DNA of 32,000 nucleotides from Candidatus Heimdallarchaeota archaeon (GCA_030149205.1 JASBSB010000006.1:240001-272000), one strand, 5' to 3'; numbered from the stretch's first letter, positions 14,783 to 29,804 are shown. Made by a program: numbers and translations. The notes: generated by a model from the letters alone, not told the origin.

Positions 14783-16096
14783 TTAAATGGTTATAGGAAT
14801 AGACTTTAATGCTATGGTTAATGGAAAGCTGTCAGTTTTTGTGAAAAGGGTTAGATGCAAATAAGGGATGTTAATTAATTTATCTGCTTTAATTTTAAGT
14901 AAGACAAAGGGGGTAGCCTGGATCAGATACCCGCTAATGTTGTACAATGATACTACTTCTGATTGACCAATAAAAAGTGGTTTGGTGGCTACCCAACTTA
15001 GGTTTCCAAATATGACATCATCGATTGTTGCAAACCTCATTGATACACTTGAAGTATTCAAATCAATTAGAAAATCATTTCTTAGGCTTAGATTTAAGGT
15101 AAAATTACCATTTCCGGTAGATTGATCTAAGCCTGTTATATTGAAATTAGAGATTGAGAATCCAAACGCATCTATGGTTGAAATATTTACCCTTACTGAG
15201 GTAAGTACAGGTATAGGTAAGCCCAGAATTTTAATGGTTCCATTTATTAAGACATGAATAGCCTGTGGAGAAGAGTTTATGAGAAATGCAACTGTTTCAT
15301 TAAATTTTTCAACCATGGTAATTGGTAATGTGTAATTGTGGGAATTGGGGGATAGAAATAATTCGAGTGATTTATTAGAGACGCCCAGTAACCTATTCAA
15401 GATAATGAATTGTAAATCGCCAACAAAGGTGGGAGAAATCCCAAGTGTGTTATTTATCATTAAGGACATCAGAGTGGTTCTGTTATTAGAATTAGTAGGT
15501 GTTTCAATGCGATTGATCTTAAATTGTAATGTATTTTTATTAGTGATATGGAGAATATTGTTGAAGTTTATCTGTTGTGAGATTCCATAAATACTAAAAT
15601 CTATTATACCCTTAAAGGGGATATTAAGAGTTTGACCTGCCAATAATTGACTGAAAAGTAGGACTGTAAACCCATCCTGATTAGAAAGTGTGGGACTAAT
15701 TTCTATGTCAAAGCTAATTGGAATCTTGAGTATGTTTCCTGAGATTGAGTTTGTTATTTGCTTTATCCCTGTGAAATTATTGAAGATGAAGGTTCCTAAG
15801 GATTTTGACTGATTTGTTGTAAATTCAACCGTTAGTTTATTTAGGTGAATGTTCCCTCCGGATGTTGATGTGCTCAAATTATAGATCAGAAGATTCGAGT
15901 GGACAGTTAATGCACCATTTGACTCTGAAAGTAGGATATCTCCCAATTCAAATCTTGCAGCATTTAGTTCGTTTGTAAATTGTGATTGACTATTTTGTAG
16001 TTGAACAAATTGGTACCCCAAAACGCTTGCCAGTAATATTATGACTCCTATCGCAATGACCTTTAAGTTGAGTTTTGAGTTAAGCAAAGATTTCAA
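14783..16096 (-). CDS. Membrane-anchored secreted beta-rich protein with probable tandem LEA_2/WHy-like domains
   Basis: One N-terminal TM helix (KVIAIGVIILLASVLGY), then three segments with an l.l.l.i.N...i.l..l pattern; many N-x-S/T sequons. Confidence 0.55.
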   Translation of the reverse strand: MKSLLNSKLNLKVIAIGVIILLASVLGYQFVQLQNSQSQFTNELNAARFELGDILLSESNGALTVHSNLLIYNLSTSTSGGNIHLNKLTVEFTTNQSKSLGTFIFNNFTGIKQITNSISGNILKIPISFDIEISPTLSNQDGFTVLLFSQLLAGQTLNIPFKGIIDFSIYGISQQINFNNILHITNKNTLQFKINRIETPTNSNNRTTLMSLMINNTLGISPTFVGDLQFIILNRLLGVSNKSLELFLSPNSHNYTLPITMVEKFNETVAFLINSSPQAIHVLINGTIKILGLPIPVLTSVRVNISTIDAFGFSISNFNITGLDQSTGNGNFTLNLSLRNDFLIDLNTSSVSMRFATIDDVIFGNLSWVATKPLFIGQSEVVSLYNISGYLIQATPFVLLKIKADKLINIPYLHLTLFTKTDSFPLTIALKSIPITI

Positions 16097-16192
16097 TATC
16101 CCTTGCTATTTAAATTTCTCTTAAAAGTTAGGTCTCAAGATTAAGAAAATGTAAGTTGTAAACACTTTTTAATTGTCAAGAAATACACAGGT

Positions 16193-16933
16193 ATGGATCA
16201 GGATAGACTGAGTTGGGAACAAAAAGCAGAGGATTGGCACAAGCAGGTGATGTACGACGGAGATAAATCAAGAAAGTATTTTTCTGATCCATGGATATGG
16301 AAGCTTCTAGGAAACGTTAAGGATAAAAAAATCTTAGATCTTGGGTGTGGTACAGGTTATCTCTCTATCCGGATAGCTTCAAAGGGAGCTTCGGTCATAG
16401 GAGTTGATTTTGCTGAGACAATGATACAAAAAGCCAAGCAAATCTCTCCTGAAAATCTCGATATTGAGTTTATCAGAAGTGAGAGCCATAAACTTTCGTT
16501 TATTCAGAATGAATCTCTTGATTTTGTTGTGTCGAACTTTGTGTTCATGGATATAAAAGAGATTGAAAAAACAATGGATGAGCTTTACCGAGTGCTCAAT
16601 GATAGAGGGAAGGTAATCACTGTGTTTTCTCATCCCTGCTTCCCTTTGGATCAATGCCAAGAGACTGAAGAAGGAGTGGTTTTTAATTGGGAACATCCTT
16701 ATTTTTCTAAAAGAAGAGTCACATCACCACCTTGGGCTCATCATAAGAGTGACTTCATTCACTATCATCGTCCACTATCATACTATTGGCAGATATTTAA
16801 AAAATCAGGATTTTCGGTTTTGGATTTTATAGAACCTGTTGCTTCAGAAGAGTTAAAGGTACAGTCACCACAGCTGTATGAGAATAGTCTGTTTAAGCCT
16901 GTTATGGTGTTATTTCAACTCTCAAAAGACTAA
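16193..16933 (+). CDS. Class I SAM-dependent methyltransferase
   Basis: Motif I ILDLGCGTG, GVDFA, LDFVVSNFVFMD, LNDRGKVI..FSHPCF. Confidence 0.9.
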   Translation: MDQDRLSWEQKAEDWHKQVMYDGDKSRKYFSDPWIWKLLGNVKDKKILDLGCGTGYLSIRIASKGASVIGVDFAETMIQKAKQISPENLDIEFIRSESHKLSFIQNESLDFVVSNFVFMDIKEIEKTMDELYRVLNDRGKVITVFSHPCFPLDQCQETEEGVVFNWEHPYFSKRRVTSPPWAHHKSDFIHYHRPLSYYWQIFKKSGFSVLDFIEPVASEELKVQSPQLYENSLFKPVMVLFQLSKD

Positions 16934-16936
16934 AAA

Positions 16937-17320
16937 TTAATTATCTTCCCACTCCACATCATAGTCAATTTCATCATCATCAAAATCATTTTCATCACTA
17001 TCAAATTCTACATTGAACTCATCGTCAAAATCATCAAAGTCCGAGTCAAACTCTTCATCCCAACTGAGAGGTGAATCAGTATCATTATCGTCAATTTCTT
17101 TGTAAGAATCTGTTTCTATATCATCTTCGACCAAATCAACATCATCAAAAGAATTAAAGTCATTTTCTGCGTTGAACTCTTCAACCAAAAAGTACTTGCC
17201 TTTTGAGTTTTTTTCTATTGTCAAGGTACTTTTACATTGATAACAAAGAACCTGATCTCCTTCATATGCCCTCTTTAAACGTATTTCGTTGTCACAGATG
17301 GGGCAAGTCATTACAAACAT
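16937..17320 (-). CDS. LysW-like zinc-ribbon protein with long Asp/Glu-rich tail
   Basis: CPIC-x16-CYQC ribbon (TCPICDNEIRL...GDQVLCYQCKSTLTI), then about 75 aa dominated by D/E. ATG 17320 has an AGGTGA Shine-Dalgarno 4 nt upstream. Confidence 0.65.
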   Translation of the reverse strand: MFVMTCPICDNEIRLKRAYEGDQVLCYQCKSTLTIEKNSKGKYFLVEEFNAENDFNSFDDVDLVEDDIETDSYKEIDDNDTDSPLSWDEEFDSDFDDFDDEFNVEFDSDENDFDDDEIDYDVEWEDN

Positions 17321-17324
17321 AGGC

Positions 17325-17330
17325 TCACCT
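17325..17330 (-). promoter_or_regulatory. Shine-Dalgarno site for the acidic Zn-ribbon gene
   Basis: Minus strand reads ATAGGTGAGCCTATG; GGTGA is the archaeal SD core. Confidence 0.6.
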
Positions 17331-17395
17331 ATATTTCTCAAATTAAGTGCTTATTAAGAATTTATCGAACCGTTACTTGAATCAATGTGATAATC

Positions 17396-20300
17396 TCAAA
17401 GAAAGAATTTCTGTTCTGTAAGTTTGAGGTAAGAAGCATGCATCTGTGGATTGTCTGGATACTGTTTGTAAGCATTATGAATAAAATCCTCAAAAAGACT
17501 GAAGATTTCGTAATGGTTATTTGATAAGAAGGTGACTATTTGTGTAAGATCTGTCTCAGTGAGAAGAGGAATAATACCGGTTATGTGGTCTCTCAGTGAA
17601 AGGAAAGTTGTACTGAAGGCTATTTTTTCAATCTGGTTATCATCAGATCTTATCTCAAGATTTTCAAGGGTTTCTATTATTTTCACTCCATTAGGGTTTC
17701 TCCAATTAGAAAAGGCATGATTAAGAACATAAAGGAGGTTGATAAGATGTTTTTCAGGTTTAGAGGATTTAATACCCGTGAGGTACAGACTAAAGATCTT
17801 AATTGTGAGTAGAACTGAAAGGATTGGGTAACCTCTCTCTGGATCAGCTACTTTATCAAATTCTGAAAACCAGTATGAAAGAATTTCTTCTTTCTGATTT
17901 GAGACGGTAATTAGATGGTTTTCAGTGACAAATTTAGAAAACATCAAAGTCGAATATATTTCAGAATGAAGCTCTAAGGGTAAACAATAGTTTTCAATAA
18001 ACTTCTCAAAATCATTCAAATTTATCAATAAATGATAAAGGTCAGGAGATACATTCAATAACAATTCGCACTTGCTCTTTGGTTCACCTAGATAACCGAT
18101 AAACAGAAACGAATTATAGGTATCATCTAGATTAATCTTCATCTCTAATGTTTTGCTGACGAGTTTAAAAATCAAAATTTTTGTCTTAATTATGACGGGT
18201 TTATTGCTCCTATATCTTCTCAAAGAGCTCAATAACTCATATCCAAGAGATTTCTTGTTCAATAACCCTTCGACAATAAGTTTTGTAAGGTTAAGAACTG
18301 TTTTAAGCTGAATCTCCGACAGATTTTGCTTATCCACCCATTCAGTTAAATCTGTAATTAATTCCAAATAGTTCTGAGTCCTAATCTTTCTCAAATGTAC
18401 AAGGGTCTGTGGATAAAAGGTTGAGCTTTCATGGATTAGTGGGAGTAGGTTTTCAGACAATTCAGTAACAAGAAACAAGAAATCATCAACTGTCAGCCTT
18501 TTAAAACTTAAACCGATCACTAATAAGGCATAAATTTCCCTTAATTTGCGAGAATCTTCAATGAGGTATAGGTTAATTAAATTTAAAAGATTGAGCTTGT
18601 CAATCAATTCCCCTAGCACCCCAATCTCAACCTTGAAGATATCTAAAACTATCTCCGAAATTGAAGAATATGTTGTATCCTTAGAATTTTTAAATTGAAG
18701 ATCTGCAATCATTTTAACTAAGGTGGAAGGCGTACTTACTAGATAATTTGCTAACTCTTTTAATGAGCTAAACCCTTGTTCTAACTTAGAAGAGTTTAGT
18801 ATTAATCTTACAACAGTGAAATCATGCCTTGGAATGATCGGCTCAAGTGGTTTTAACACTGATAAATTTTGTAGTAGAGCAGATTCTTTGGGATAATTAC
18901 TCATAATCAATTCAGAAAGGTCATCTGCAAGTGTGGATTTATTATCTCCTACTTCGAAAAGTAAGAATTGCAGTAGATGACTGAAAATCAATTGATCGAA
19001 GGATACTTCTAAGTCTATGGAAGCGATCTTATAATACAATAACCTATGATATTTCCGAACTGGACTGAGTAGCATGTTACTTGAATATACTAAGAGCCGA
19101 TTATATAGTGAAAATTGGTTTGATGATGTTATCTCAGAATAAGATTGCTGAACCAGTTCTATTAAACTATTTAATATTTGTGGACCTTTAATTTCCAAAT
19201 TAGGATTGAAAACCAAATCGAAAATAGAACGTCTCTCTTGAGAGGGTAAAAATCTGAGGAAGGGGAGGAATAATTCTGGGAATGCTAAGTACTGTGAATT
19301 TACACTTATTGTGTTTAATATAGTAACTGCTCTTTTTTCTAAGAAACTTTTATTTTCTTCATGAGAAGTAATCAGTTTGTTGAATTTTGAAACTAAATCA
19401 TTGGTTATAACCCATTGATTTTCTGTTGTTAACTTCAATAGGTCAATATTTAATGGTTCACCTTCCATTAGAAGTAGAACCTGCAAGTAAACTATATTCG
19501 TCATCTCTGGTTGTAAATCAATAAACCCAGATCTTGCCTTGATCAGATACACCAACTGTTCCTGGTCTAAAGTTGCTTGATTTATTACATCTCTATTAGG
19601 TTCAAAAATTTGCTGATTCTTTTCAATAAGTTGAAAATAAAGGTTTACAAGGTCTAAAAATTCAAAGAGCTTTAATTCGCTGTCTTTTATCTCCAATTCT
19701 TGAAGATTTACAAGTATTGAGTTCAAAATGGTCTCACTTGTAAACATGAATCCATAACGATTCACAGTAAATAAGGGTAATTTAACAGATAACTCCTGGA
19801 ATACCGACAACGAATCTTTCTCTAATTCCTCAAAATATACAAAACAATTTTTCAACGTGTCTCGACTCAAAAAATCATCATTAGGTTTCCTTCCTTCTAA
19901 TTTGTTTCGGAATATCAAAATTAAATATTCTAACAATTGAATAGATTCTAAATTTAGACCATGGAAAAGAGAAATTTTCCTTTGGGTACTTAGATTGACA
20001 TTTTGAAGGTTTGAAGGTTGCGAAATTTCTTGAGGTAGAGTGAGGGTCATTTTTTTGAAAACTGCTAAATAGGGAATCAGTAACTCATGAGGAACATCTG
20101 GGTAATCTGCTCTATATATCCCTTTAAGATTTTCAACAAAACTTGAATAATAGTTTGCATAAAGAGAGGGCAAGAGATGTAGGGTTTCAGGACTAAGGAT
20201 TACATACAAGTTTGAGATGATGATCGACCCTATTAATTCCTTTACCAGACCTGATGGGAGGTTAATGGTTTCAACAATACTAAGTTTCGGGTCAAGCTCA

Positions 20301-21340
20301 ACTTCTAACGCTAGCTCATAGAAACTTAAAGGACTTTCAACAAAGAAAACCAATTTCAGATCTAGACCTTTAATGGATTTAAGAAAACTCTTTATCTCAG
20401 CTTGTGACTGCTGTTGTATATAGGCAAATCCTGAAAGAAAAATTAACAAAGGTCTTTTGATTTGAGATTTAACAGATTGTAGAATCTCTTCAGGTGAATC
20501 ACTTTCTCTTTGTAAATTTAACTCTAAGGATTTCAGATCAAGCTGGTCAAGAATTTGATCTGTTACTTGTTTTATGATTGGTTTATTTTCATCAATCATT
20601 ATCAAGTTAATTTGAATTACAGGAGCATGTTTCTCAATTTGTAATATAAGCATAGATCTTATAAAAGAATCTGAATTAATAATCACGGTAGCATTTAACA
20701 AAGATTGATCCAAGAGATTTGATAGAATGCTGGGGTTATATTTTAGAAAGATTTCTAACAATACAGTTGAAGAAGGATTTAAATCAAAGGTTAAATCATG
20801 CCCACAATGAGTTGCATCAAAGAATTGCAGTGCTAATACAAACCCCTCCCGTTTAATAAAAACTTCTGACCATGAATTTTTTGCTGTTGATATCACAATC
20901 AGATTTAACTCTGCAAGGTACCTTAGTTTTTCTAACTTAAATAACTGTCTAAACTTCTTTTTTTTTCCAAATACTTTATTCCATTCGTCTTTAGATCCTG
21001 TAACATCCCTTTCGTAATGAATCTGCTGGACTTCCTCCCTGTTAACCAGACGGAAAGGTTGTTCAGGTATTAAAACCTCAGATCGTGCGGTTTTATTCTC
21101 ATTCTCAGATATCAAAGTTTCGCTTTGTTTCCTTCGGGAAGCGACTGCGAGATGAATCAAAATCTGTTGTAAATCAAAGTCATCTGTTAGTACCTCTCTT
21201 GAATTAAAAAAATTCTCCAGTGATATTTGATTAAGTAGATTTTCAAACAGGTTATCCTCACCTAATAGAACCCTCTTTTCGTTGATCGAATGATGCTTTT
21301 TGAAATTTTCTAGATTAGATTTTAGGTCCTTAAAGGTCAC
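17396..21340 (-). CDS. Large hypothetical protein: probable wHTH + degenerate P-loop NTPase (STAND/AAA+-like) + helical repeat region
   Basis: Uninterrupted 1314-aa ORF with a GTG start. Domain assignment is by secondary-structure pattern only (see findings). Confidence 0.5.
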   Translation of the reverse strand: MTFKDLKSNLENFKKHHSINEKRVLLGEDNLFENLLNQISLENFFNSREVLTDDFDLQQILIHLAVASRRKQSETLISENENKTARSEVLIPEQPFRLVNREEVQQIHYERDVTGSKDEWNKVFGKKKKFRQLFKLEKLRYLAELNLIVISTAKNSWSEVFIKREGFVLALQFFDATHCGHDLTFDLNPSSTVLLEIFLKYNPSILSNLLDQSLLNATVIINSDSFIRSMLILQIEKHAPVIQINLIMIDENKPIIKQVTDQILDQLDLKSLELNLQRESDSPEEILQSVKSQIKRPLLIFLSGFAYIQQQSQAEIKSFLKSIKGLDLKLVFFVESPLSFYELALEVELDPKLSIVETINLPSGLVKELIGSIIISNLYVILSPETLHLLPSLYANYYSSFVENLKGIYRADYPDVPHELLIPYLAVFKKMTLTLPQEISQPSNLQNVNLSTQRKISLFHGLNLESIQLLEYLILIFRNKLEGRKPNDDFLSRDTLKNCFVYFEELEKDSLSVFQELSVKLPLFTVNRYGFMFTSETILNSILVNLQELEIKDSELKLFEFLDLVNLYFQLIEKNQQIFEPNRDVINQATLDQEQLVYLIKARSGFIDLQPEMTNIVYLQVLLLMEGEPLNIDLLKLTTENQWVITNDLVSKFNKLITSHEENKSFLEKRAVTILNTISVNSQYLAFPELFLPFLRFLPSQERRSIFDLVFNPNLEIKGPQILNSLIELVQQSYSEITSSNQFSLYNRLLVYSSNMLLSPVRKYHRLLYYKIASIDLEVSFDQLIFSHLLQFLLFEVGDNKSTLADDLSELIMSNYPKESALLQNLSVLKPLEPIIPRHDFTVVRLILNSSKLEQGFSSLKELANYLVSTPSTLVKMIADLQFKNSKDTTYSSISEIVLDIFKVEIGVLGELIDKLNLLNLINLYLIEDSRKLREIYALLVIGLSFKRLTVDDFLFLVTELSENLLPLIHESSTFYPQTLVHLRKIRTQNYLELITDLTEWVDKQNLSEIQLKTVLNLTKLIVEGLLNKKSLGYELLSSLRRYRSNKPVIIKTKILIFKLVSKTLEMKINLDDTYNSFLFIGYLGEPKSKCELLLNVSPDLYHLLINLNDFEKFIENYCLPLELHSEIYSTLMFSKFVTENHLITVSNQKEEILSYWFSEFDKVADPERGYPILSVLLTIKIFSLYLTGIKSSKPEKHLINLLYVLNHAFSNWRNPNGVKIIETLENLEIRSDDNQIEKIAFSTTFLSLRDHITGIIPLLTETDLTQIVTFLSNNHYEIFSLFEDFIHNAYKQYPDNPQMHASYLKLTEQKFFL

Positions 21341-21406
21341 ACAACTCTTTAGTAATCTTTAGTATTATGGTTTATCAGGTTTTGGTAATTGTCAGATTAT
21401 TATTAA

Positions 21407-21958
21407 TTACTCTACACTTTCTGAAGCCTGTATCTCTTCAACCAACTCTGTAAATACCTTGTCCACATTTAACCCTAAAAGTGCGGATGTTTCAATATAT
21501 GAGACGTCGTAACCAGACCATTCTGATAATGTTTCTGCATAACCCTTTGCAATATCAGCAGGTACTGCCCATTTGCCTTCTTTTGTTCTTAAGTCCACTT
21601 TGTTACCAACAACAATGAATGGTATGATCTTTCCAACATTTCTTATGGTTTCATCAATCCAATATGGGAGGTTTTCATAGGTCTGTGGTCTGGAAATATC
21701 GAAAACTAGAATTGCACCCGTTGTTCCCTTGTAATAGCCTTCTCTTACCACATCAAAGTTTTCTTGACCTGCAAGATCCCATATTTGGAATACAACATCC
21801 TCAACCCTTTTAACCCCAAAATCAGCACCTATCGTCATCAGGTAATTGTAATCAAATCCTTGTCCAAGGTACCGTCTCCTTAGTGATGTCTTTCCGACCA
21901 TTGGATCACCTATCAAGACCAATTTGTAAACCTGCTTTTGATTGTAATTGAATGACAA
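21407..21958 (-). CDS. Ras-superfamily small GTPase, Rab-like
   Basis: G1 GDPMVGKT, G2 T, G3 WDLAGQ, G4 NKVD, G5 ETSAL. RabF-like IGADF, QIWD, YYKG and LVFDIS. No C-terminal cysteine. TTG start. Confidence 0.93.
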   Translation of the reverse strand: MSFNYNQKQVYKLVLIGDPMVGKTSLRRRYLGQGFDYNYLMTIGADFGVKRVEDVVFQIWDLAGQENFDVVREGYYKGTTGAILVFDISRPQTYENLPYWIDETIRNVGKIIPFIVVGNKVDLRTKEGKWAVPADIAKGYAETLSEWSGYDVSYIETSALLGLNVDKVFTELVEEIQASESVE

Positions 21959-22007
21959 ATTAATTATATATGATTTTCTCTCTTTTAACTATTTTCATTT
22001 CTAAGAG

Positions 22008-22013
22008 TATAAA
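22008..22013 (-). promoter_or_regulatory. Candidate TATA box for the Rab-like gene/operon
   Basis: TTTATA on the minus strand, preceded by purine-rich GCAAAGA (BRE-like), 50 nt upstream of TTG 21958. Confidence 0.35.
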
Positions 22014-22144
22014 TCTTTGCGGAAGCTAAAAATTTTGAGAGTTGTATATCAAAAAATCGATTTTATTACCTTTTTTATTACCATAGCAAAGTAGAAACAA
22101 TTAATCCAAGAACACTTTATATAAAAAGAAGATGAGATAATGAT

Positions 22145-22912
22145 GTGCTACAAGCAATATCTACTGATCAGATGAAACTTGTCGATCAAATTATGACAAA
22201 TAAATTTCAGATTCCTGTGGAATTGATGATGGAACATGCAGGGTTAAATTTGGCAAAATTAGCGTCAAGGGAAATATCCTCTTATAACGTTGTAGTTTTT
22301 GTTGGTAATGGAAACAACGGGGGAGGTGGATTGGTCTGTGCAAGACGGTTAATAGCTTGGGGGTATCAGGTATCACTTTACTCACCCTCATTGTTTCAAA
22401 AGTTTAAAGAAACCCCATACAATCAATTTAAACGTACTATAGCTATTGATCCTGGTATCCATCTCCTAAAGTCAGAGGAAGATTTTTACAATTACAAGAA
22501 TGAGTCCGACCACCCTCTCCTAGCAGTTGATGCCTATATAGGTTACGGATTCTCGGGGATCCCCTCTGAAATTGCTAAGAAGACGATACAGTTAATAAAA
22601 AGTTGCGACAAAATAATTTCGCTTGATGCTCCATCTGGATTAGATACAACGACTGGTCAAAATACCCTAAATCTTATCCCAGACATAATAGCAACTTTGG
22701 CATATCCAAAAATTGGATTGTTAAAAATTTCTCAGCTCGATACAGAGATATTTTTAGTTGACATAGGTGTTCCCATGTCTGTATATCTAGATAACTTGGG
22801 ATTAGAGTGGGAAAACTCTACTAAAAGGGAATTAAAAAAGGTTTATTTCAAACTTAAAAATACGTCTTTCATTTCAATAAGACTTGATAATAACGGGTGG
22901 ACTACGAAATAG
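22145..22912 (+). CDS. nnrE: NAD(P)H-hydrate epimerase (YjeF_N), stand-alone
   Basis: LMMEHAG, GNGNNGGGGLVCARRL, VDAYIGYG, SLDAPSG, TLAYPKIGL. Confidence 0.88.
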   Translation: MLQAISTDQMKLVDQIMTNKFQIPVELMMEHAGLNLAKLASREISSYNVVVFVGNGNNGGGGLVCARRLIAWGYQVSLYSPSLFQKFKETPYNQFKRTIAIDPGIHLLKSEEDFYNYKNESDHPLLAVDAYIGYGFSGIPSEIAKKTIQLIKSCDKIISLDAPSGLDTTTGQNTLNLIPDIIATLAYPKIGLLKISQLDTEIFLVDIGVPMSVYLDNLGLEWENSTKRELKKVYFKLKNTSFISIRLDNNGWTTK

Positions 22913-22916
22913 AAGC

Positions 22917-24587
22917 TTAATCAAATCTATCTAGATATTTTTGATTCTTTCGTTTCAATGCTGCCTCGACAAAGGAGAAGTAGGGTGGAGAGGGTCTCCA
23001 GGGATTAGATTTAAACTCAGGATGAAATTGGGTCGCAATAAAATAGGGGTGGTCAACAATCTCTAGAGTTTCCATGAGTTCATTCCAAGTTCCTGTAAAT
23101 TGGAGACTTTTTTCATCAAATACATAGAGCAATTCTGGATTTACCTCATACCGATGTCTATGTCTTTCCTGAATTTTTAGCTTTTTGTAAATCTCATATA
23201 TTTTGGTATTAGGACGCAAAGTAACTTCATAACTCCCCAATCTCATGGTTCCACCTTTTTCAGAAACAGATCGTTGTTCTGGAAGTAAATCAATTATGGG
23301 GAATTTTGCATTGGGATTAATTTCTGTTGAGTAAGCATCTTGTATCCCTAGTACATTCCTGGCATACTCAACCACGGAGAGCTGAAATCCTAGGCAAATT
23401 CCCAAAAAAGGGATCTTATTTTTGCGTGCATATTCTATGGCCTTGATTTTACCCTCTATTCCTCTGGTTCCGAATCCCCCAGGAATAAGTATCCCATCAA
23501 CCTTATCAAGTAAGGACAATGAAGCTTCATCCTCCTCAAATCGTTCTGTTGGTAAGAGGTGTAATTCAACATCAACACCTTGATTCCATCCTGCATGTTT
23601 TAAAGCCTCAGTGACTGAAATATACGAATCACTTAGTGAGGTGTACTTTCCGGGAATACCAATCTTGACCTTTTCTTTCAGACTTTTAATTTCCTGAGTT
23701 AAATTTACAAATTTTGTCCAGTTTGGTGGAGTAACACGAGAATGAATTCTAAGCTGATCTTCAAGCAAATTACCAAGTCCCTGGCGTTCCAATGCACGAG
23801 GTACTTGAAAGACATTAGGTAAATCTGGAAGGTCTAAAACAGCGTTCTCAGCAACGTTCCCAAAATTTGATATTTTTTCAAGGGCTTTTGATGATAGAGG
23901 GATAGAACTTCGACAGATTATAATGTTTGGAGACATTCCCGCAGCTTGTAACTCTCTTACAGAATGTTGAGCTGGTTTAGTTTTATGCTCTTTTAAATGT
24001 TCAGGGAATGGTACATAGGTCAGCAGGACAATAGAGGTAAGGTGACCATTTTCTTTTCGCTTCAGTTGACGTATAGCCTCCAGATAAGGTTGTGATTCAA
24101 TATCCCCAATTGTGCCACCTACCTCAACAAGCATGACATCAGGAGTAAATTTTTTTCTTTGCTCCTCTATTCGTCTCAGTATCTCATCTATGATATGTGG
24201 GACAATCTGAACAGTTTGACCAAGAAAATCTCCTCTTCTTTCTCTACTGATTACCTCAAAATAAATTTGTCCTGTGGTGATATTCTGTTCCTTTGAAACT
24301 TCTATTTCCAAAAAACGTTCATAGTGACCGAAGTCCACATCAAGCTCACCACCGTCGTTTGTTACAAAGGTTTCACCGTGTTCGGTAGGATTCATTGTCC
24401 CCGCATCTAAATTCAGATAAGGATCTATTTTAATGATGTGAACTTTAAGTCCTCTCGCTTGGAGTGCGGCTCCTATGGAACAGGTAACAATTCCTTTCCC
24501 TAATCCTGACAAGACAGAGCCTAAAATAAAAACTGTTTTTGATTGAACCTTATTTTCACTCAAACTTGATGTGTGTAATGTAGACAC
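22917..24587 (-). CDS. pyrG: CTP synthase
   Basis: SGLGKG, KIDPYLN.DAGTM.P..HGE, EVGGTIGDIES, KTKPAQHS, PGGFG.RG, GICLG, ERHRHRYE, QFHPE. Confidence 0.99.
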   Translation of the reverse strand: MSTLHTSSLSENKVQSKTVFILGSVLSGLGKGIVTCSIGAALQARGLKVHIIKIDPYLNLDAGTMNPTEHGETFVTNDGGELDVDFGHYERFLEIEVSKEQNITTGQIYFEVISRERRGDFLGQTVQIVPHIIDEILRRIEEQRKKFTPDVMLVEVGGTIGDIESQPYLEAIRQLKRKENGHLTSIVLLTYVPFPEHLKEHKTKPAQHSVRELQAAGMSPNIIICRSSIPLSSKALEKISNFGNVAENAVLDLPDLPNVFQVPRALERQGLGNLLEDQLRIHSRVTPPNWTKFVNLTQEIKSLKEKVKIGIPGKYTSLSDSYISVTEALKHAGWNQGVDVELHLLPTERFEEDEASLSLLDKVDGILIPGGFGTRGIEGKIKAIEYARKNKIPFLGICLGFQLSVVEYARNVLGIQDAYSTEINPNAKFPIIDLLPEQRSVSEKGGTMRLGSYEVTLRPNTKIYEIYKKLKIQERHRHRYEVNPELLYVFDEKSLQFTGTWNELMETLEIVDHPYFIATQFHPEFKSNPWRPSPPYFSFVEAALKRKNQKYLDRFD

Positions 24588-24658: not shown

Positions 24659-25117
24659 CTAAAATCTAGTACGGTTAGCAGAAATGGCTAGCTTCGCCTT
24701 GACACCATTGCCACCGAAACTTTCATACTCTTTACCTTGTCCTAATTTTATAGTCAACTTCACGTCTATGAGTTTATCATCTTTTCCTAAATCTTTGTCA
24801 TAGACCCTAAAGGGTACTTCGATACTCCCGCCATCTTTCTTCTCAATAAACTCAGAATATAATGATAGCCCATCGGACGGTTTAAAAACTTCATTTCGAT
24901 CAATTTCTATCTCACCATGGTCAGGAGTTCTTTTTGATCGTAATCTACTTCCCATCTCAATATAGATCTCAGAAGTCCGACCTATATGATCAGTTTCTTC
25001 CTCAACCTTGATTGATACTAGTGAGATATGAACAAAATATCTCCATCCTTCTATCGGAGTTCTGTCTCCTTTTGCACTTGTATCTGTGTATGTTTTTACT
25101 ACTCTTTTTCTGCCCAT
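24659..25117 (-). CDS. Stand-alone C2-domain-like protein (tentative)
   Basis: All-beta pattern. ETDHIGRTSEIYI resembles the C2 D..G.SDPYV loop, and RVYDKDLGKDDKLI resembles V.D.D....D.iG. The start could be ATG 25117, 25141 or 25165. Confidence 0.5.
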   Translation of the reverse strand: MGRKRVVKTYTDTSAKGDRTPIEGWRYFVHISLVSIKVEEETDHIGRTSEIYIEMGSRLRSKRTPDHGEIEIDRNEVFKPSDGLSLYSEFIEKKDGGSIEVPFRVYDKDLGKDDKLIDVKLTIKLGQGKEYESFGGNGVKAKLAISANRTRF

Positions 25118-25255
25118 ATCGTCAAATTTGAGTTCCCACATAAAAAGATTAGGTGTGAAATTCATTTGAGTTTTTATAGCTATTGAACAAAACCTTCCAA
25201 ATAAATCATGTTTTTAAAACCCAATAATTTTAAATGATAAATACTACTATTACCC

Positions 25256-25735: not shown

Positions 25736-26653
25736 TTAAATATCTTTGTTGATATTTTCTGTAGATGGTTTTCCGTTTTCCTCAAAGGGTAACCACAGCT
25801 TCTTTATTCTTACCTTCCCAGGAGAACGCTGATTTAACAGTTCATATAACCTTAGATAGATAAATCGGAGAGACTCCACATCCAACCGGTTATACAAAAC
25901 TAGCAGGTCTTTAAGTTCTCTAGTTAAGAGCCTCTGCTCGTATAGCATCCCAAAAAGGTAGCCAAGATGAATGTTTGTCTTTTTCTTATTGATTGGACGT
26001 CTGTATTGTACCTGAGGGAGAGCATCTACCACCTCGGAATTAATTAGCAGAGATTCAAAATCAGGATAGCCTAAAAAATGTGAAAGTTTTTTGACACTAA
26101 ATCCCACAGGAGAAACAAGAGATTTTCTGAATAGCTTTAATAGATCTATAGATTGGTAAAGATTCTTAAAATCGGGGATGCTATCACGGGTCAGATCAAC
26201 CAGTCTCTTGAAATCATAATCTGTGCCAGAGGAGGCAACGATTATTGATTTGTCTTCATCCTTGAGATAAGTGCCGACTTTATTTTTAAAGCTTGAGAAC
26301 TTGTTTTTATAAACTGAATAAGGTTTATTTGTGCTGTCAGAAAAAGTAACCAAGAATGGTCTGTAAGTTTTTGAAGGTTCAGCCTCTATATCACAGAAGA
26401 TGATTTGGTCTGGTGGAGGGAGTGTTACAGGACTCTTTAAGAGGAAAGATTTTTCGAAATACAATTGGACGTTTTGTTGAATTGAGATTGCTGCAAATTG
26501 GTTATTCGAATTAAAAATAATCTCATCTATGCGGTCAACTGAGATTTCACGAAGTTGATGTAGATCCGTAATCCCTGCTGTGGACAAAGCCTTAGCCCCT
26601 TTACTTGAGATCCCGTCGATCTGTTCTAAATCTGCAAAGGTCTTTGTTTCCAT
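25736..26653 (-). CDS. Helix-hairpin-helix + YprB-like RNase H-fold (DEDDy) 3'-5' exonuclease
   Basis: HhH: LEQIDGISSKGAKALSTAGI. ExoI CDIE, ExoII GTDYDF, IDLLK, FSVKKLSHFLG, ExoIII YNRLDV. Confidence 0.75.
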   Translation of the reverse strand: METKTFADLEQIDGISSKGAKALSTAGITDLHQLREISVDRIDEIIFNSNNQFAAISIQQNVQLYFEKSFLLKSPVTLPPPDQIIFCDIEAEPSKTYRPFLVTFSDSTNKPYSVYKNKFSSFKNKVGTYLKDEDKSIIVASSGTDYDFKRLVDLTRDSIPDFKNLYQSIDLLKLFRKSLVSPVGFSVKKLSHFLGYPDFESLLINSEVVDALPQVQYRRPINKKKTNIHLGYLFGMLYEQRLLTRELKDLLVLYNRLDVESLRFIYLRLYELLNQRSPGKVRIKKLWLPFEENGKPSTENINKDI

Positions 26654-26705: not shown

Positions 26706-27836
26706 TCAAAACGGAAAGTATCTTCTTTTTCTTAGATACTCTAAATTCACTCCAAATGTTACAGATATTTGGTTTAGGATCTCATCTAAATACTCACCTG
26801 AGAGTTTAGCCCTCTCATCTGATTCTATGATGAACGAGGGTAAAGCAACGCCTAACCCATGTTGAGTAGTAACATAAAGAACAGACAACATAATCGGAAG
26901 AAGCTCCTGAAACCAGTTCCTCTCTGGATATGCTAGGAGCTCTGTTTTAATTGCTGTGTCTTCATTCAATTTAATCAGGCTTACCCAAACCTCTACTGGA
27001 GGATGAGAGGGAACCCAACTTGGAGCTGAGCTTCGATACCATGCAGTTCTACTAGAATTCTTTAGAATAAGTGTTGCTAACTCAGAATCCAAAATGTTTG
27101 TCATAATTGCCCGATAGCCTTTAATGAGTACAGTATCAATAGATTTTGCTCGTATCCATTGGACTATGGTTTCAACTAAATTTTTGCTGAAATCTCTAGA
27201 CCTAGTGTCTTTGATAACACCAATTAGAAGAGTCTCAGATTCAAAGGCATACATTACTAATCGGTTATAGACAGACTTAACTTCATCAATCATCTGTGAA
27301 ATTAATTTTGTTTGATTTGGGTTTTGAAAATCTGTACTATGTGGGTGAACCGAGCCATCAATAAAGAAAATTTTTGGCCCATAGACCTTGATGGAGTGAT
27401 AAGCTGCCAAATATTCGTCTCTTAGTCTGAGCAATGTTGCAAGTCTGTTTAAATCATGTCTGCTATTCAGAGAGGGTGTCAAAAACACATTTGGTGAGGG
27501 ATCAAAGTTTGGATAGTATTTTACATCAACGTTCTCCCCAATACCTGAAAACACAGGTGAAACAGCTCTAGAAATTACCAGGTCAAACCCTCTCAGTTCT
27601 TCGGTAATAAGGCCACCATCCACAGCCCCAATCTTAACAAATCTTACGGGTATTGGTTCGAGAGGGACAACTATTTGTTCGTCAACCCAGAGGTCTTGCG
27701 GAAGACTTGGAAGTTCAGGGATTACCTGCTGCCATTTGGTCAGCCATTGTCTCTGCTCAGTTAATCTCTGCTGTTCTTTCTTAAGAATATCAGCTAGTTT
27801 TTGATCAAAGAAATCTGAAATGGTAACCTTCTCCAT
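26706..27836 (-). CDS. nurA: DNA double-strand break repair nuclease NurA
   Basis: GAVDGG, FFIDGS, IGVIKD and C-terminal LPSFIIESDERAKL (the P..l..a[HD]..aki motif). Confidence 0.85.
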   Translation of the reverse strand: MEKVTISDFFDQKLADILKKEQQRLTEQRQWLTKWQQVIPELPSLPQDLWVDEQIVVPLEPIPVRFVKIGAVDGGLITEELRGFDLVISRAVSPVFSGIGENVDVKYYPNFDPSPNVFLTPSLNSRHDLNRLATLLRLRDEYLAAYHSIKVYGPKIFFIDGSVHPHSTDFQNPNQTKLISQMIDEVKSVYNRLVMYAFESETLLIGVIKDTRSRDFSKNLVETIVQWIRAKSIDTVLIKGYRAIMTNILDSELATLILKNSSRTAWYRSSAPSWVPSHPPVEVWVSLIKLNEDTAIKTELLAYPERNWFQELLPIMLSVLYVTTQHGLGVALPSFIIESDERAKLSGEYLDEILNQISVTFGVNLEYLRKRRYFPF

Positions 27837-27890: not shown

Positions 27891-29804
27891 TTACTTTACT
27901 CTTTTAAATTTTCTGCGTCGTTTTTCTCGGAGCTCTTGTGCATCGATAAATTGCCTTGATCTAAGAATTATCTCAGAAGCAACATTTTGAGGAATTTTAA
28001 ATCTCTGAGAGAGGGTTTCTGAACTCTCTTTTGCAATGTTAGAAAGAGACTTGTATTCCTTCATAAGGATTGACTTCCTTTTTTCTCCAACCCCTGAAAT
28101 TTCATCAAGAAGTGTTTTTAAGCCATCTTTCATTCGGCGTTTTCGTTGATAGGTTACTGCAAATCTGTGTGCCTCATCTCTACCTGCTCTTACCAAAAGC
28201 ATCCCTGGTCTATTTTTATCAAACTGAATTGGTTCCTCCAAATTTGGTCTGTAGACCTCTTCAAGTTTTTTGGCTAGACCGATAACTGGAATACTAAGCC
28301 CTAGCTCATCAAGTGCTGTCTTTGCCCTTTTCAACTGCTCTCTCCCTCCATCTATTACAATTAGATTTGGGAGCGTCAATCCGAACTTATCCAAAGAATC
28401 TATCCAGTCACTGTACCGCCTATAAACTACCTCATACATAGATGCAAAATCATCCTGACCTTCTACAGTTCTGACCTTAAATCTCCGATATCCTTTCTTG
28501 AATGGCTTACCATGAACAAATCTTACTGATGATCCAACGTTATTTGTTCCCATGAGAGTTGAAATATCAAAAGTATCAATTATGACAGGGGGCTCATCTA
28601 GAGTTAAAATCTTTTGAAGGTCAAGAACTTGATTGGAAAAAGTTTTGGCCATTGCAAAATCACTCTTCTTTCCTAACATCACCTTTCTTCGAATAAATTG
28701 CTTGAGGTTCTGTTCCAACAGTACAACTACCTGTTTTTGATTTGCCTGCCTGTGAACAACCCGATATCCTATCTCATTCAGTATTCCATCCATACTGTCA
28801 AAGTTTGTTGCGTTCAGGACTCTGTTGAACCGATATCGCTTAGGGTCACGGCCAATAATACTAAGCGTTGTAGATAAGACAAAATCCAAGTAAATATCTC
28901 CATCAGAGCTCTCAGATTCTAGCTCTTCGATCGATATAAAAACAGGGTTTTGTTGAACCAAGTGGTTGTTTTCGACTCTTGCTACATTTACACCAAAATA
29001 TGTTTCATTTTTGTAGATTACAACTATGAAAGTGTCAGGAGAATCAATAATGACAGCCTGTTTTTCTAATGTCCTATTTAGAGACTTGAGAAGATCACGA
29101 TACTCAGCAGCTCTCTCAAACTCTAGTACATCGGCAGACTCTTTCATCAGATTTTCAACCTCCTTTTGTACTTCAGGTAGCCTACCGTCCAGAAAATTGG
29201 TTACCGCATTTATCTGTTCTCTGTAATCAACTGGATTAATGGGAACCTCACATGGTTTTAAACATTGATTGGTTCGCCTTCTAATGCATGTTTTTGCCCA
29301 GGTTTTTGCATCTCCAAGATGTATCTCATGATCACAATTTGCTACAGGAAATGTTTGCAGTATGTACTTAATGGATCTTCGAACTGCACCCACATCACTA
29401 AAAGGGCCAAGATACACCGATTCTTTGTTCTCTGTTTCTCTTGTGACAATCACTCTAGGGAATTTTTCTCCAGTTGTTATCTCTACAAAGGGGTAGGTTT
29501 TGCCATCTCTCCATTTTGAATTGATTGAAGGTTTGTGCTCTTGGATTAGATTGTATTCAAGCAGGAGTGCTTCTTTCTCAGAGCTAACCTCTACTACCTC
29601 TATATCTTTCCCCTTTTCTCTTATTACACGTGATGCAGCAAAATCATTTGAGGGGGTAAAATGGTTTCTTAACCTATTCCGAAGATTCTTTGCCTTACCT
29701 ACATATATAATTCTTCCATACTCATCTTTTATCATGTAGACCCCTGGGTTAGTTGACATGCTTTTCAAGAGCTTCTCAATTCGGGGAAGACGAACCTCCA
29801 TCAT
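27891..29804 (-). CDS. uvrC: Excinuclease ABC subunit C
   Basis: GIY-YIG (PGVY..KD..IIYVGKAKNLRNRL), YLGPF, four-Cys region, UVR domain (LEFERAAEYRD), RNase H domain (FDISTL, DDFASM, IDGG, GLAK, RDEAHRFA) and HhH (ISGVGEKR). Confidence 0.97.
   Translation of the reverse strand: MMEVRLPRIEKLLKSMSTNPGVYMIKDEYGRIIYVGKAKNLRNRLRNHFTPSNDFAASRVIREKGKDIEVVEVSSEKEALLLEYNLIQEHKPSINSKWRDGKTYPFVEITTGEKFPRVIVTRETENKESVYLGPFSDVGAVRRSIKYILQTFPVANCDHEIHLGDAKTWAKTCIRRRTNQCLKPCEVPINPVDYREQINAVTNFLDGRLPEVQKEVENLMKESADVLEFERAAEYRDLLKSLNRTLEKQAVIIDSPDTFIVVIYKNETYFGVNVARVENNHLVQQNPVFISIEELESESSDGDIYLDFVLSTTLSIIGRDPKRYRFNRVLNATNFDSMDGILNEIGYRVVHRQANQKQVVVLLEQNLKQFIRRKVMLGKKSDFAMAKTFSNQVLDLQKILTLDEPPVIIDTFDISTLMGTNNVGSSVRFVHGKPFKKGYRRFKVRTVEGQDDFASMYEVVYRRYSDWIDSLDKFGLTLPNLIVIDGGREQLKRAKTALDELGLSIPVIGLAKKLEEVYRPNLEEPIQFDKNRPGMLLVRAGRDEAHRFAVTYQRKRRMKDGLKTLLDEISGVGEKRKSILMKEYKSLSNIAKESSETLSQRFKIPQNVASEIILRSRQFIDAQELREKRRRKFKRVK

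Follow-up and report, generated by a model that had tools for sequence, protein, structure and literature searches.

A Rab-like GTPase gene and the gene for an inactive STAND-type protein form a conserved pair in a lineage of Heimdallarchaeota

We analyzed a stretch of 32,000 nucleotides (nt) of DNA from a Candidatus Heimdallarchaeota archaeon (GCA_030149205.1, JASBSB010000006.1:240001-272000), which we will call the window. On its minus strand, a gene for a Rab-like small GTPase of 183 amino acids (21407-21958, with a TTG start codon) is followed by a gene for a protein of 1,314 amino acids (17396-21340), and we find that these two genes are a conserved pair in one family-level lineage of Heimdallarchaeota. 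The large protein (P0002) is an inactive AAA+ protein of the ORC/STAND type joined to a HEAT-like solenoid. An earlier note on this DNA had counted a third gene, for a zinc (Zn)-ribbon protein with a polyacidic tail, as part of the same system. Gene order in related genomes supports the grouping of the GTPase with the large protein, but the Zn-ribbon gene of the relatives lies 10-18 kilobases (kb) away or on another contig.

Results

Conservation of the pair

A gene for a Ras-family GTPase directly adjoins the gene for the large protein at 8 of the 10 distinct loci of the family with a readable flank, and the rest of the flanks partly changes from locus to locus. At five of these, the GTPase gene lies upstream in the same orientation, with a gap of 66 nt in the window's genome (G000), 19 nt in G003, and 7 nt in G001 and at the loci of P0009 and P0010. 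(G001, G002, and G003 are congeners of the window's organism, and P numbers refer to members of the large-protein family.) At the other three loci (G007/P0007, P0011, and P0012), the two genes are divergent and are separated by spacers of 125-151 nt. Only 61 nt of the G002 contig lie upstream of its large gene, so this flank is unreadable. Three members of the family, P0008, P0013, and P0014, do not have a GTPase neighbor. The most distant members, P0013 (L054:5471-10269) and P0014 (L055:5290-9654), adjoin the gene for aIF5A, which is co-oriented in one case and divergent in the other.

The adjacency of the pair has outlasted at least two rearrangements, namely the change of orientation and the move of a gene for a YjeF_N protein across the pair, from next to the GTPase gene to the 3' side of the large gene, as well as a complete change of flanks at the P0012 locus. 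If we compare the G001 locus to the P0010 locus, the GTPases are 98.9% identical, while the YjeF_N proteins are 56% identical and the large proteins are 40% identical. For the G007 and P0011 loci, the corresponding values are 96%, 60%, and 40%.

The two genes are probably co-regulated. We read the spacer between them in the window (21341-21406, minus strand, 66 nt) directly, and there is no oligo-T run in its coding strand. Upstream of the GTPase gene is an AT-rich divergent intergenic region of 186 nt (21959-22144), with the YjeF_N gene on its other side, and direct reading of this region identified the TATA-like elements TTTATAC and ATATATAA upstream of the GTPase's start codon. This is presumably the promoter region of the GTPase side.

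The Rab-like GTPase

The GTPase matches the Ras model of Pfam at 1.8e-40 (138.6 bits, with a cut-off of 21.6), and the Arf model gives a far weaker score (7e-10). Motifs G1 to G5 are intact (GDPMVGKTS, switch-I Thr42, WDLAGQ with the catalytic glutamine Q65, NKVD, and ETSAL), in line with the earlier note's description of an intact Rab-like GTPase, and these motifs are invariant across 8 members of the clade. The best relative with a solved structure is a Rab from Thorarchaeota (7ezb, 1.5e-34), followed by Rab11, Ypt31/32, Rab1, and Rab7. The C terminus (...EEIQASESVE) has no cysteine for prenylation, which is usual among the Rab-like proteins of Asgard archaea.

Each of the related genomes has 30-50 candidates for Ras-like genes, in keeping with an Asgard archaeon. 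The GTPases that adjoin the large gene form a single clade (support 98/96), apart from the other Ras-like paralogs in each genome. In the sister family, the nearest GTPases lack a large neighboring gene.

The large protein and its family

P0002 has no match in Pfam, NCBIfam, or PADLOC, and when 5.8 billion proteins were searched with a word index, P0002 itself was the sole result. By searching the genomes of relatives and then searching 1.84 billion representative proteins with a profile, we identified a family of 11 members. All of them are on Heimdallarchaeota-type contigs, and within the order they were found only in a single family (f1). We did not detect any eukaryotic homolog. The overall identity between the window's protein and any of its relatives is just about 22%. 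We inferred its architecture from the alignment of the family and from two AlphaFold models. The family and its N-terminal domain are not described in the libraries that we searched. The Rab-like GTPase, the ORC/STAND AAA+ core, and the HEAT-like solenoid are of known kinds.

The N-terminal domain (amino acids 40-185; 20786-21223, minus strand) is specific to the family and is its best-conserved part. It is modeled with a predicted local distance difference test (pLDDT) score of 75-92, and its invariant residues are H63, R97, H108, F130, R131, W157, G166, and C179, along with a basic GKKKKFRQ patch. The predicted topology, two helices and a beta hairpin, resembles a winged helix. Neither Pfam nor the PDB has a sequence match to the domain, there is no feature match in the Atlas, and it matches none of the known families of effectors.

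Next is a P-loop NTPase core of the AAA+/STAND type (amino acids 188-362; 20255-20779, minus strand) in which both nucleotide motifs are lost. With VIA-align, the structures that align with the core include ORC3 (7jgr_C, Z = 12.4), ORC2 from A. pernix (1w5s, Z = 11.9), and PAB2304 (2qen, Z = 11.8); MalT, NRC2, CED-4, and Avs3/4 are at Z of about 10, and the range over these proteins is 9.7-12.4. Foldseek finds ORC4/5 and Cdc6 at E = 6e-6, a profile of the family matches the sequence of Cdc6 at 2.1e-6, and the neighbors of the core in the Atlas bear the domains AAA_22, AAA_16, nSTAND1, and ATPase_2. The resemblance to Orc1/Cdc6 is confined to the AAA+ core: P0002 does not match the Orc1/Cdc6 model TIGR02928, P0008 reaches just 17 bits (the cut-off is 181), and there is no match to Cdc6_lid or WHD_Cdc6 from Pfam.

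The core is followed by a helical region (amino acids 363-552; 19685-20254, minus strand) that is poorly modeled, with pLDDT mostly below 50 (and below 50 throughout residues 355-463). A few alignments to APAF-1, Dark, and STAND-TPR proteins extend to amino acids 525-549, and this region may correspond to the lid and winged-helix part of ORC/STAND modules.

The rest of the protein is an all-alpha, HEAT-like solenoid of about 760 residues and about 43 helices (amino acids 553-1314; 17399-19684, minus strand), which the AlphaFold2 model gives with a pLDDT of 77. Foldseek matches it to condensin Ycg1 (3.4e-4), TRRAP, RRP12, and importin-beta (8.4e-4, with a template-modeling [TM] score of 0.22), and the TM scores are low throughout. 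In the Atlas, it is similar to an importin-13 cluster (TM 0.45) and to HEAT/TPR clusters. Weak structural scores are typical of solenoids. We also considered whether the large protein might be a membrane protein, and we rejected this: there is no convincing transmembrane segment, and the highest Kyte-Doolittle mean over 19 residues is 1.78, within the solenoid.

Graded loss of the P-loop

At the position of Walker A, P0002 has NSDSFIRS where relatives have GESGAGKS, and its Walker B strand, LLIFLSGF, contains no acidic residue. Because both motifs are lost, the core of P0002 is predicted to be unable to bind nucleotide. The earlier note had called the large protein a giant pseudo-NTPase/solenoid protein, and this label holds, because the middle part folds as a P-loop NTPase core that lacks a P-loop and the C-terminal 775 residues are predicted to be all-helical.

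As judged from the aligned sequences, the decay of the P-loop is graded within the family, with intact, K-to-L, and fully erased stages in living relatives. Walker A is intact only in two of the three relatives that are not linked to a GTPase, P0008 (GESGAGKS) and P0013 (GEYGQGKS). P0008 also matches Pfam's AAA_22 at 1.8e-6 and NACHT weakly. The lysine is replaced by leucine in P0014, P0011, and P0007, and throughout the window's genus the motif is unrecognizable. All of the linked members have a degenerate or missing Walker A, with the exception of P0012 (GDSGAGKN).

YjeF_N is a more constant neighbor than the Zn-ribbon gene

A gene for a YjeF_N protein adjoins the pair, on either side, in seven loci (G000, G001, G003, P0009, P0010, P0007, and P0011), so it is a more constant third neighbor than the Zn-ribbon gene. 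In the window, this gene (22145-22912, plus strand; Pfam YjeF_N, 8.8e-27) is divergent from the GTPase gene and encodes a stand-alone paralog, of the NAD(P)HX-epimerase type, with 255 amino acids. It is NAXE-like, with GNNGGGG in place of the usual GNNGGDG. The same genome also encodes a canonical YjeF_N-containing protein of 543 amino acids elsewhere (G000:C4:82547-83098), and our search of two genomes from the sister family turned up the long form alone. It is possible that the stand-alone YjeF_N protein is a third component of the pair, and we offer this as a lead rather than a finding.

The Zn-ribbon gene (16937-17341, minus strand, if it begins at a TTG codon) has a more likely start codon in the ATG at 17320, with AGGTGA ahead of it. 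The product (16937-17320, 127 amino acids) contains CPIC...CYQC and then an 82-residue tail with 41 aspartates or glutamates and one lysine or arginine, which agrees with the earlier note's description. The part that encodes the tail contains a tandem repeat of 21 nt (16957-17005). The only homologs that we found are those of the three congeners. In G003 and G001, the Zn-ribbon gene is on the same contig as the pair, 10 and 18 kb away, and is directly downstream of a gene for a type IA topoisomerase (Topoisom_bac, 5.7e-89). In G002, it is on a separate short contig, next to a small conserved protein and a fragment of a helicase. In the window's genome, the topoisomerase is 55 kb away. Across the genus, the length of the acidic tail ranges from 82 to about 180 residues, and that of the protein from 127 to about 230 amino acids (window, 16937-17320; L018:1198-1854; L019:1402-2235).

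Thus, the Zn-ribbon gene is outside the conserved unit. It is an unrelated neighbor that adjoins the pair in the window's genome only, and it was placed there by a rearrangement specific to that genome. An oligo-T run follows its stop codon, and this is the only such run among the three genes, so the Zn-ribbon gene might be co-transcribed with the pair by read-through. As for its function, the protein could be a DNA mimic or an acidic protein that is associated with the topoisomerase or with histones. We also compared it to the carrier proteins LysW and ArgW, which likewise have an N-terminal Zn ribbon with four cysteines in a similar pattern and an acidic C terminus. However, the similarity does not extend beyond the Zn ribbon, the scores are far below the cut-offs (18.6 versus 27 bits for Pfam and 20.4 versus 75 bits for NCBIfam), the tail has 82 residues instead of about 10, and the C terminus is DVEWEDN rather than of the EDWGE type. 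Furthermore, where a conserved neighbor is visible, it is the topoisomerase and not a gene of lysine or arginine biosynthesis.

The surroundings of the pair

The layout of the locus is as the earlier note had described it: three co-oriented open reading frames (ORFs) on the minus strand, with gaps of 66 and 75 nt (if the Zn-ribbon gene is read from ATG 17320), lie between the divergent region at 21959-22144 and a convergent gene for a class I methyltransferase that uses S-adenosylmethionine (16193-16933, plus strand). The methyltransferase is not a conserved neighbor, as its best matches in the relatives are on other contigs, and the methyltransferase at the P0012 locus is only generically related to it. 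There is no match to any Rfam family within 16000-23000.

Housekeeping genes fill the wider window (M32 carboxypeptidase, SurE, CTP synthase, peroxiredoxin, NurA, UvrC, and HerA). The genes for NurA (26706-27836), UvrC (27891-29804), and HerA (30570 onward) cluster closely, and an RNase-H-fold protein is encoded at 25736-26653. Two ORFs on the minus strand, of 437 amino acids (14783-16096) and 168 amino acids (24659-25165), have no match in Pfam or NCBIfam.

In the congeners, the large gene is followed by a gene for a conserved macroglobulin/Ig-like protein of 624 amino acids and then by a gene for a surface protein of 1,030-1,290 amino acids (L006:2-5702; L014:1390-7128; L050:8506-14247). The surface protein has an archaeal type IV pilin N terminus and many Ig-like domains, and the next gene encodes a DNA methylase of the Eco57I type. 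The window's locus lacks this block downstream of its large gene.

Discussion

A proposed two-gene module

Given the genomic linkage, the architecture of the large protein, and the decay of its nucleotide motifs, we lean toward the view that the pair is a functional two-gene module, with the GTPase as a nucleotide switch and the inactive STAND protein as its scaffold or effector. STAND proteins normally carry their own nucleotide switch. In the proposed module, the small GTPase would supply a nucleotide-dependent on/off switch in trans. The GTP-bound form would dock on the large scaffold, probably on the solenoid, which would be the surface for docking or sensing, and docking would control the output domain at the conserved N terminus, a domain that may bind nucleic acid. 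The physical binding of the two proteins, the direction of regulation, and the cellular output are all things that we infer. The earlier note had suggested that the large protein might be an effector or scaffold of the GTPase, and this is the most economical explanation for a conserved pair.

A further suggestion, which is tentative and on balance doubtful, concerns the origin of such a module: the Rab-like GTPase might have taken over, in trans, the switch role of a STAND/ORC-type protein whose P-loop decayed stepwise in one lineage of Heimdallarchaeota.

Several observations weigh against a functional module. Everything that points to a functional link is genomic and was drawn from a single narrow lineage, so the linked loci are not independent of each other. 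YjeF_N, whose gene looks unrelated, is nearly as constant a neighbor as the GTPase is, which shows that plain synteny persists in this region. There are few cases behind the association between the loss of the P-loop and adjacency to the GTPase, and it has exceptions: P0012 has GKN although it is linked, and P0014 has the K-to-L change although it is not. The large proteins give a star-like tree from which it cannot be shown that the linkage arose once, and the window's copy is on the longest branch, which could reflect relaxed constraint. Finally, in G009, a GTPase from the same clade is divergent from a gene for an orphan protein of 792 amino acids instead (L065:948-4145, G009:C220). This orphan has no match in Pfam and no profile similarity to either half of the large-protein family, and it may be a non-homologous partner or one that has diverged beyond recognition.

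Alternative explanations

One alternative is that the two genes are together through inherited synteny and are not functionally coupled: their products would act in unrelated processes, and the genes would not yet have been separated in a young and narrow lineage. All of the linked loci do come from one family-level clade, genes for NUDIX proteins as well as YjeF_N recur nearby, and Asgard GTPases do not generally share operons with their partners (PMC10933270). Nevertheless, we consider this explanation unlikely. The pair stayed together through the rearrangements and the change of flanks described above, while the Zn-ribbon, methyltransferase, and surface-protein neighbors were all exchanged over the same divergence. 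Also, the gaps of just 7-19 nt in four loci indicate an operon, and members of the GTPase clade are found in the same genomes as members of the large-protein family.

The pair could also be an antiviral or conflict system. In that case, the large protein would be a sensor similar to Avs or NLR proteins, with a solenoid that recognizes molecules from invaders and an N-terminal domain that acts as the effector, while the GTPase would serve as a switch for regulation or sensing, comparable to the ternary systems with inactive STAND modules or the AP-GTPase systems. The order of an N-terminal domain, a STAND-type core, and a long repeat sensor is the plan of Avs and NLR proteins, and the core is similar to Avs3/4, NRC2, and CED-4 (Z of about 10). 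The large protein diverges very quickly next to a near-invariant GTPase, its distribution is restricted to one lineage, there is a bacterial precedent for inactive STAND modules with a separate NTPase (PMC8195603), and in the congeners an Eco57I-type methylase is encoded a few genes downstream. On the other hand, the N-terminal domain does not match any known family of effectors, and the loss of the P-loop removes the usual oligomerization step that is driven by nucleoside triphosphate (NTP). The locus has a stable chromosomal position amid housekeeping genes (CTP synthase, SurE, M32 peptidase, UvrC, NurA/HerA) rather than in a defense island, there is one copy per genome, and we saw no hallmarks of mobile elements. 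PADLOC gave no match for P0001, P0002, P0003, P0008, P0012, or P0013, with a library from 2023 that is mainly bacterial. Overall, we think that a conflict system is quite unlikely.

The original idea of a three-gene proto-eukaryotic module for trafficking or signaling, with the acidic Zn-ribbon protein as an adaptor or nucleic-acid mimic, now seems very improbable: the three genes are co-oriented with short gaps in the window's genome and the sole oligo-T run comes after the third, but the Zn-ribbon gene comes with a ribosome-binding site (AGGTGA) and a TATA-like stretch of its own, its homologs are limited to the genus and are 10-18 kb off (G003 and G001) or on a separate contig (G002), the gene after the large one in the congeners encodes the 624-residue Ig/macroglobulin-like protein, and Pfam and NCBIfam find no trafficking-type domain (longin, roadblock, TRAPP, or coat). 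The earlier note had proposed a comparison of gene order among relatives as a check, and the outcome contradicts the inclusion of the Zn-ribbon gene. The trafficking part of this idea is also at odds with the large protein itself, which has an ORC/STAND-type architecture, has no detected homolog in eukaryotes, and is limited to one family of archaea.

Why the pair matters

Asgard archaea have dozens of Ras-, Rab-, and Arf-like GTPases. Almost none of these have been matched to a partner, and their genes are usually not linked to those of regulators or effectors (PMC10933270), which is why we regard the pair as unusual. Because the pair is anchored in the genome and several orthologous versions of it exist in nature, a functional link between the two proteins can be tested directly. 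Whatever the GTPase does, the graded decay of the P-loop in a STAND/ORC-type protein should be useful for studying how pseudo-NTPases originate. If the GTPase does act as a switch in trans, then the pair would be a previously undescribed kind of signaling module, composed of a GTPase and an inactive STAND protein. It would also be a natural example of a GTPase and its solenoid effector, with the logic of Ran and karyopherins or of Rab and LRRK2, that arose in the archaeal relatives of eukaryotes. Since the large protein is limited to one family of Heimdallarchaeota and has no detectable descendant in eukaryotes, these results bear on signaling in Asgard archaea and not directly on eukaryogenesis.

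Comparison with known systems

The architecture of the large protein, with an output domain, an ORC/STAND core, and helical repeats, has the same order as in the STAND NTPases with repeat sensors (MalT, AfsR and the large SARPs, Avs/NLR proteins, and APAF-1/CED-4), and the core resembles these proteins and the ORC/Cdc6 clade at Z of 10-12. This is a plan for signaling and immunity in prokaryotes. The relatives P0008 and P0013 retain the canonical Walker A of this group. In contrast, P0002 has lost both Walker A and Walker B, no STAND or ORC model from Pfam reaches its cut-off, and the N-terminal domain belongs to no known family. Another difference from the STAND proteins is that the partner of P0002 is encoded by a separate gene for a small GTPase. 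In the literature, we found no description of a small GTPase that is genomically coupled to an inactive STAND protein.

One precedent is bacterial. Inactive STAND modules (iSTAND and iSTAND2) have been described in ternary conflict systems with MoxR and vWA proteins (Kaur et al., PMC8195603). Going by that description, both cases combine a STAND module whose NTP motifs have eroded with an active NTPase that is encoded separately. In our case, however, the separate NTPase is a Rab-like GTPase instead of MoxR, there is no vWA and no effector-associated domain, and the genes are in a housekeeping context in an archaeon. We found no neighboring genes for MoxR AAA+ or vWA proteins in the window or at the related loci.

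In eukaryotes, there are several pairs of a GTPase and an alpha solenoid, such as Ran and karyopherins, Rab and the ARM domain of LRRK2, or Arf and coat adaptors, and the combination of a Rab-like GTPase with a large HEAT-like solenoid is similar. Karyopherins are even among the nearest shapes to the solenoid (the importin-13 cluster and importin-beta, as given above). But this is a likeness of fold class only, as the TM scores are at most 0.25 against solved chains, and there is no IBN_N or other signature. Also, in the large protein, the solenoid is fused to a dead AAA+ domain.

The earlier note took it as established that the genes of small GTPases in Asgard archaea are often next to those of their regulators. 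For Prometheoarchaeum MK-D1, this is contradicted by the statement that its GTPase genes do not generally share operons with candidate regulators (PMC10933270). The GTPase itself is much like other Asgard Rab-like GTPases: it has the same set of motifs as the Rab from Thorarchaeota, its best solved relative, and it also lacks a prenylation tail. What sets it apart is that it belongs to a distinct clade, from one family of Heimdallarchaeota, that is genomically tied to the gene of a partner.

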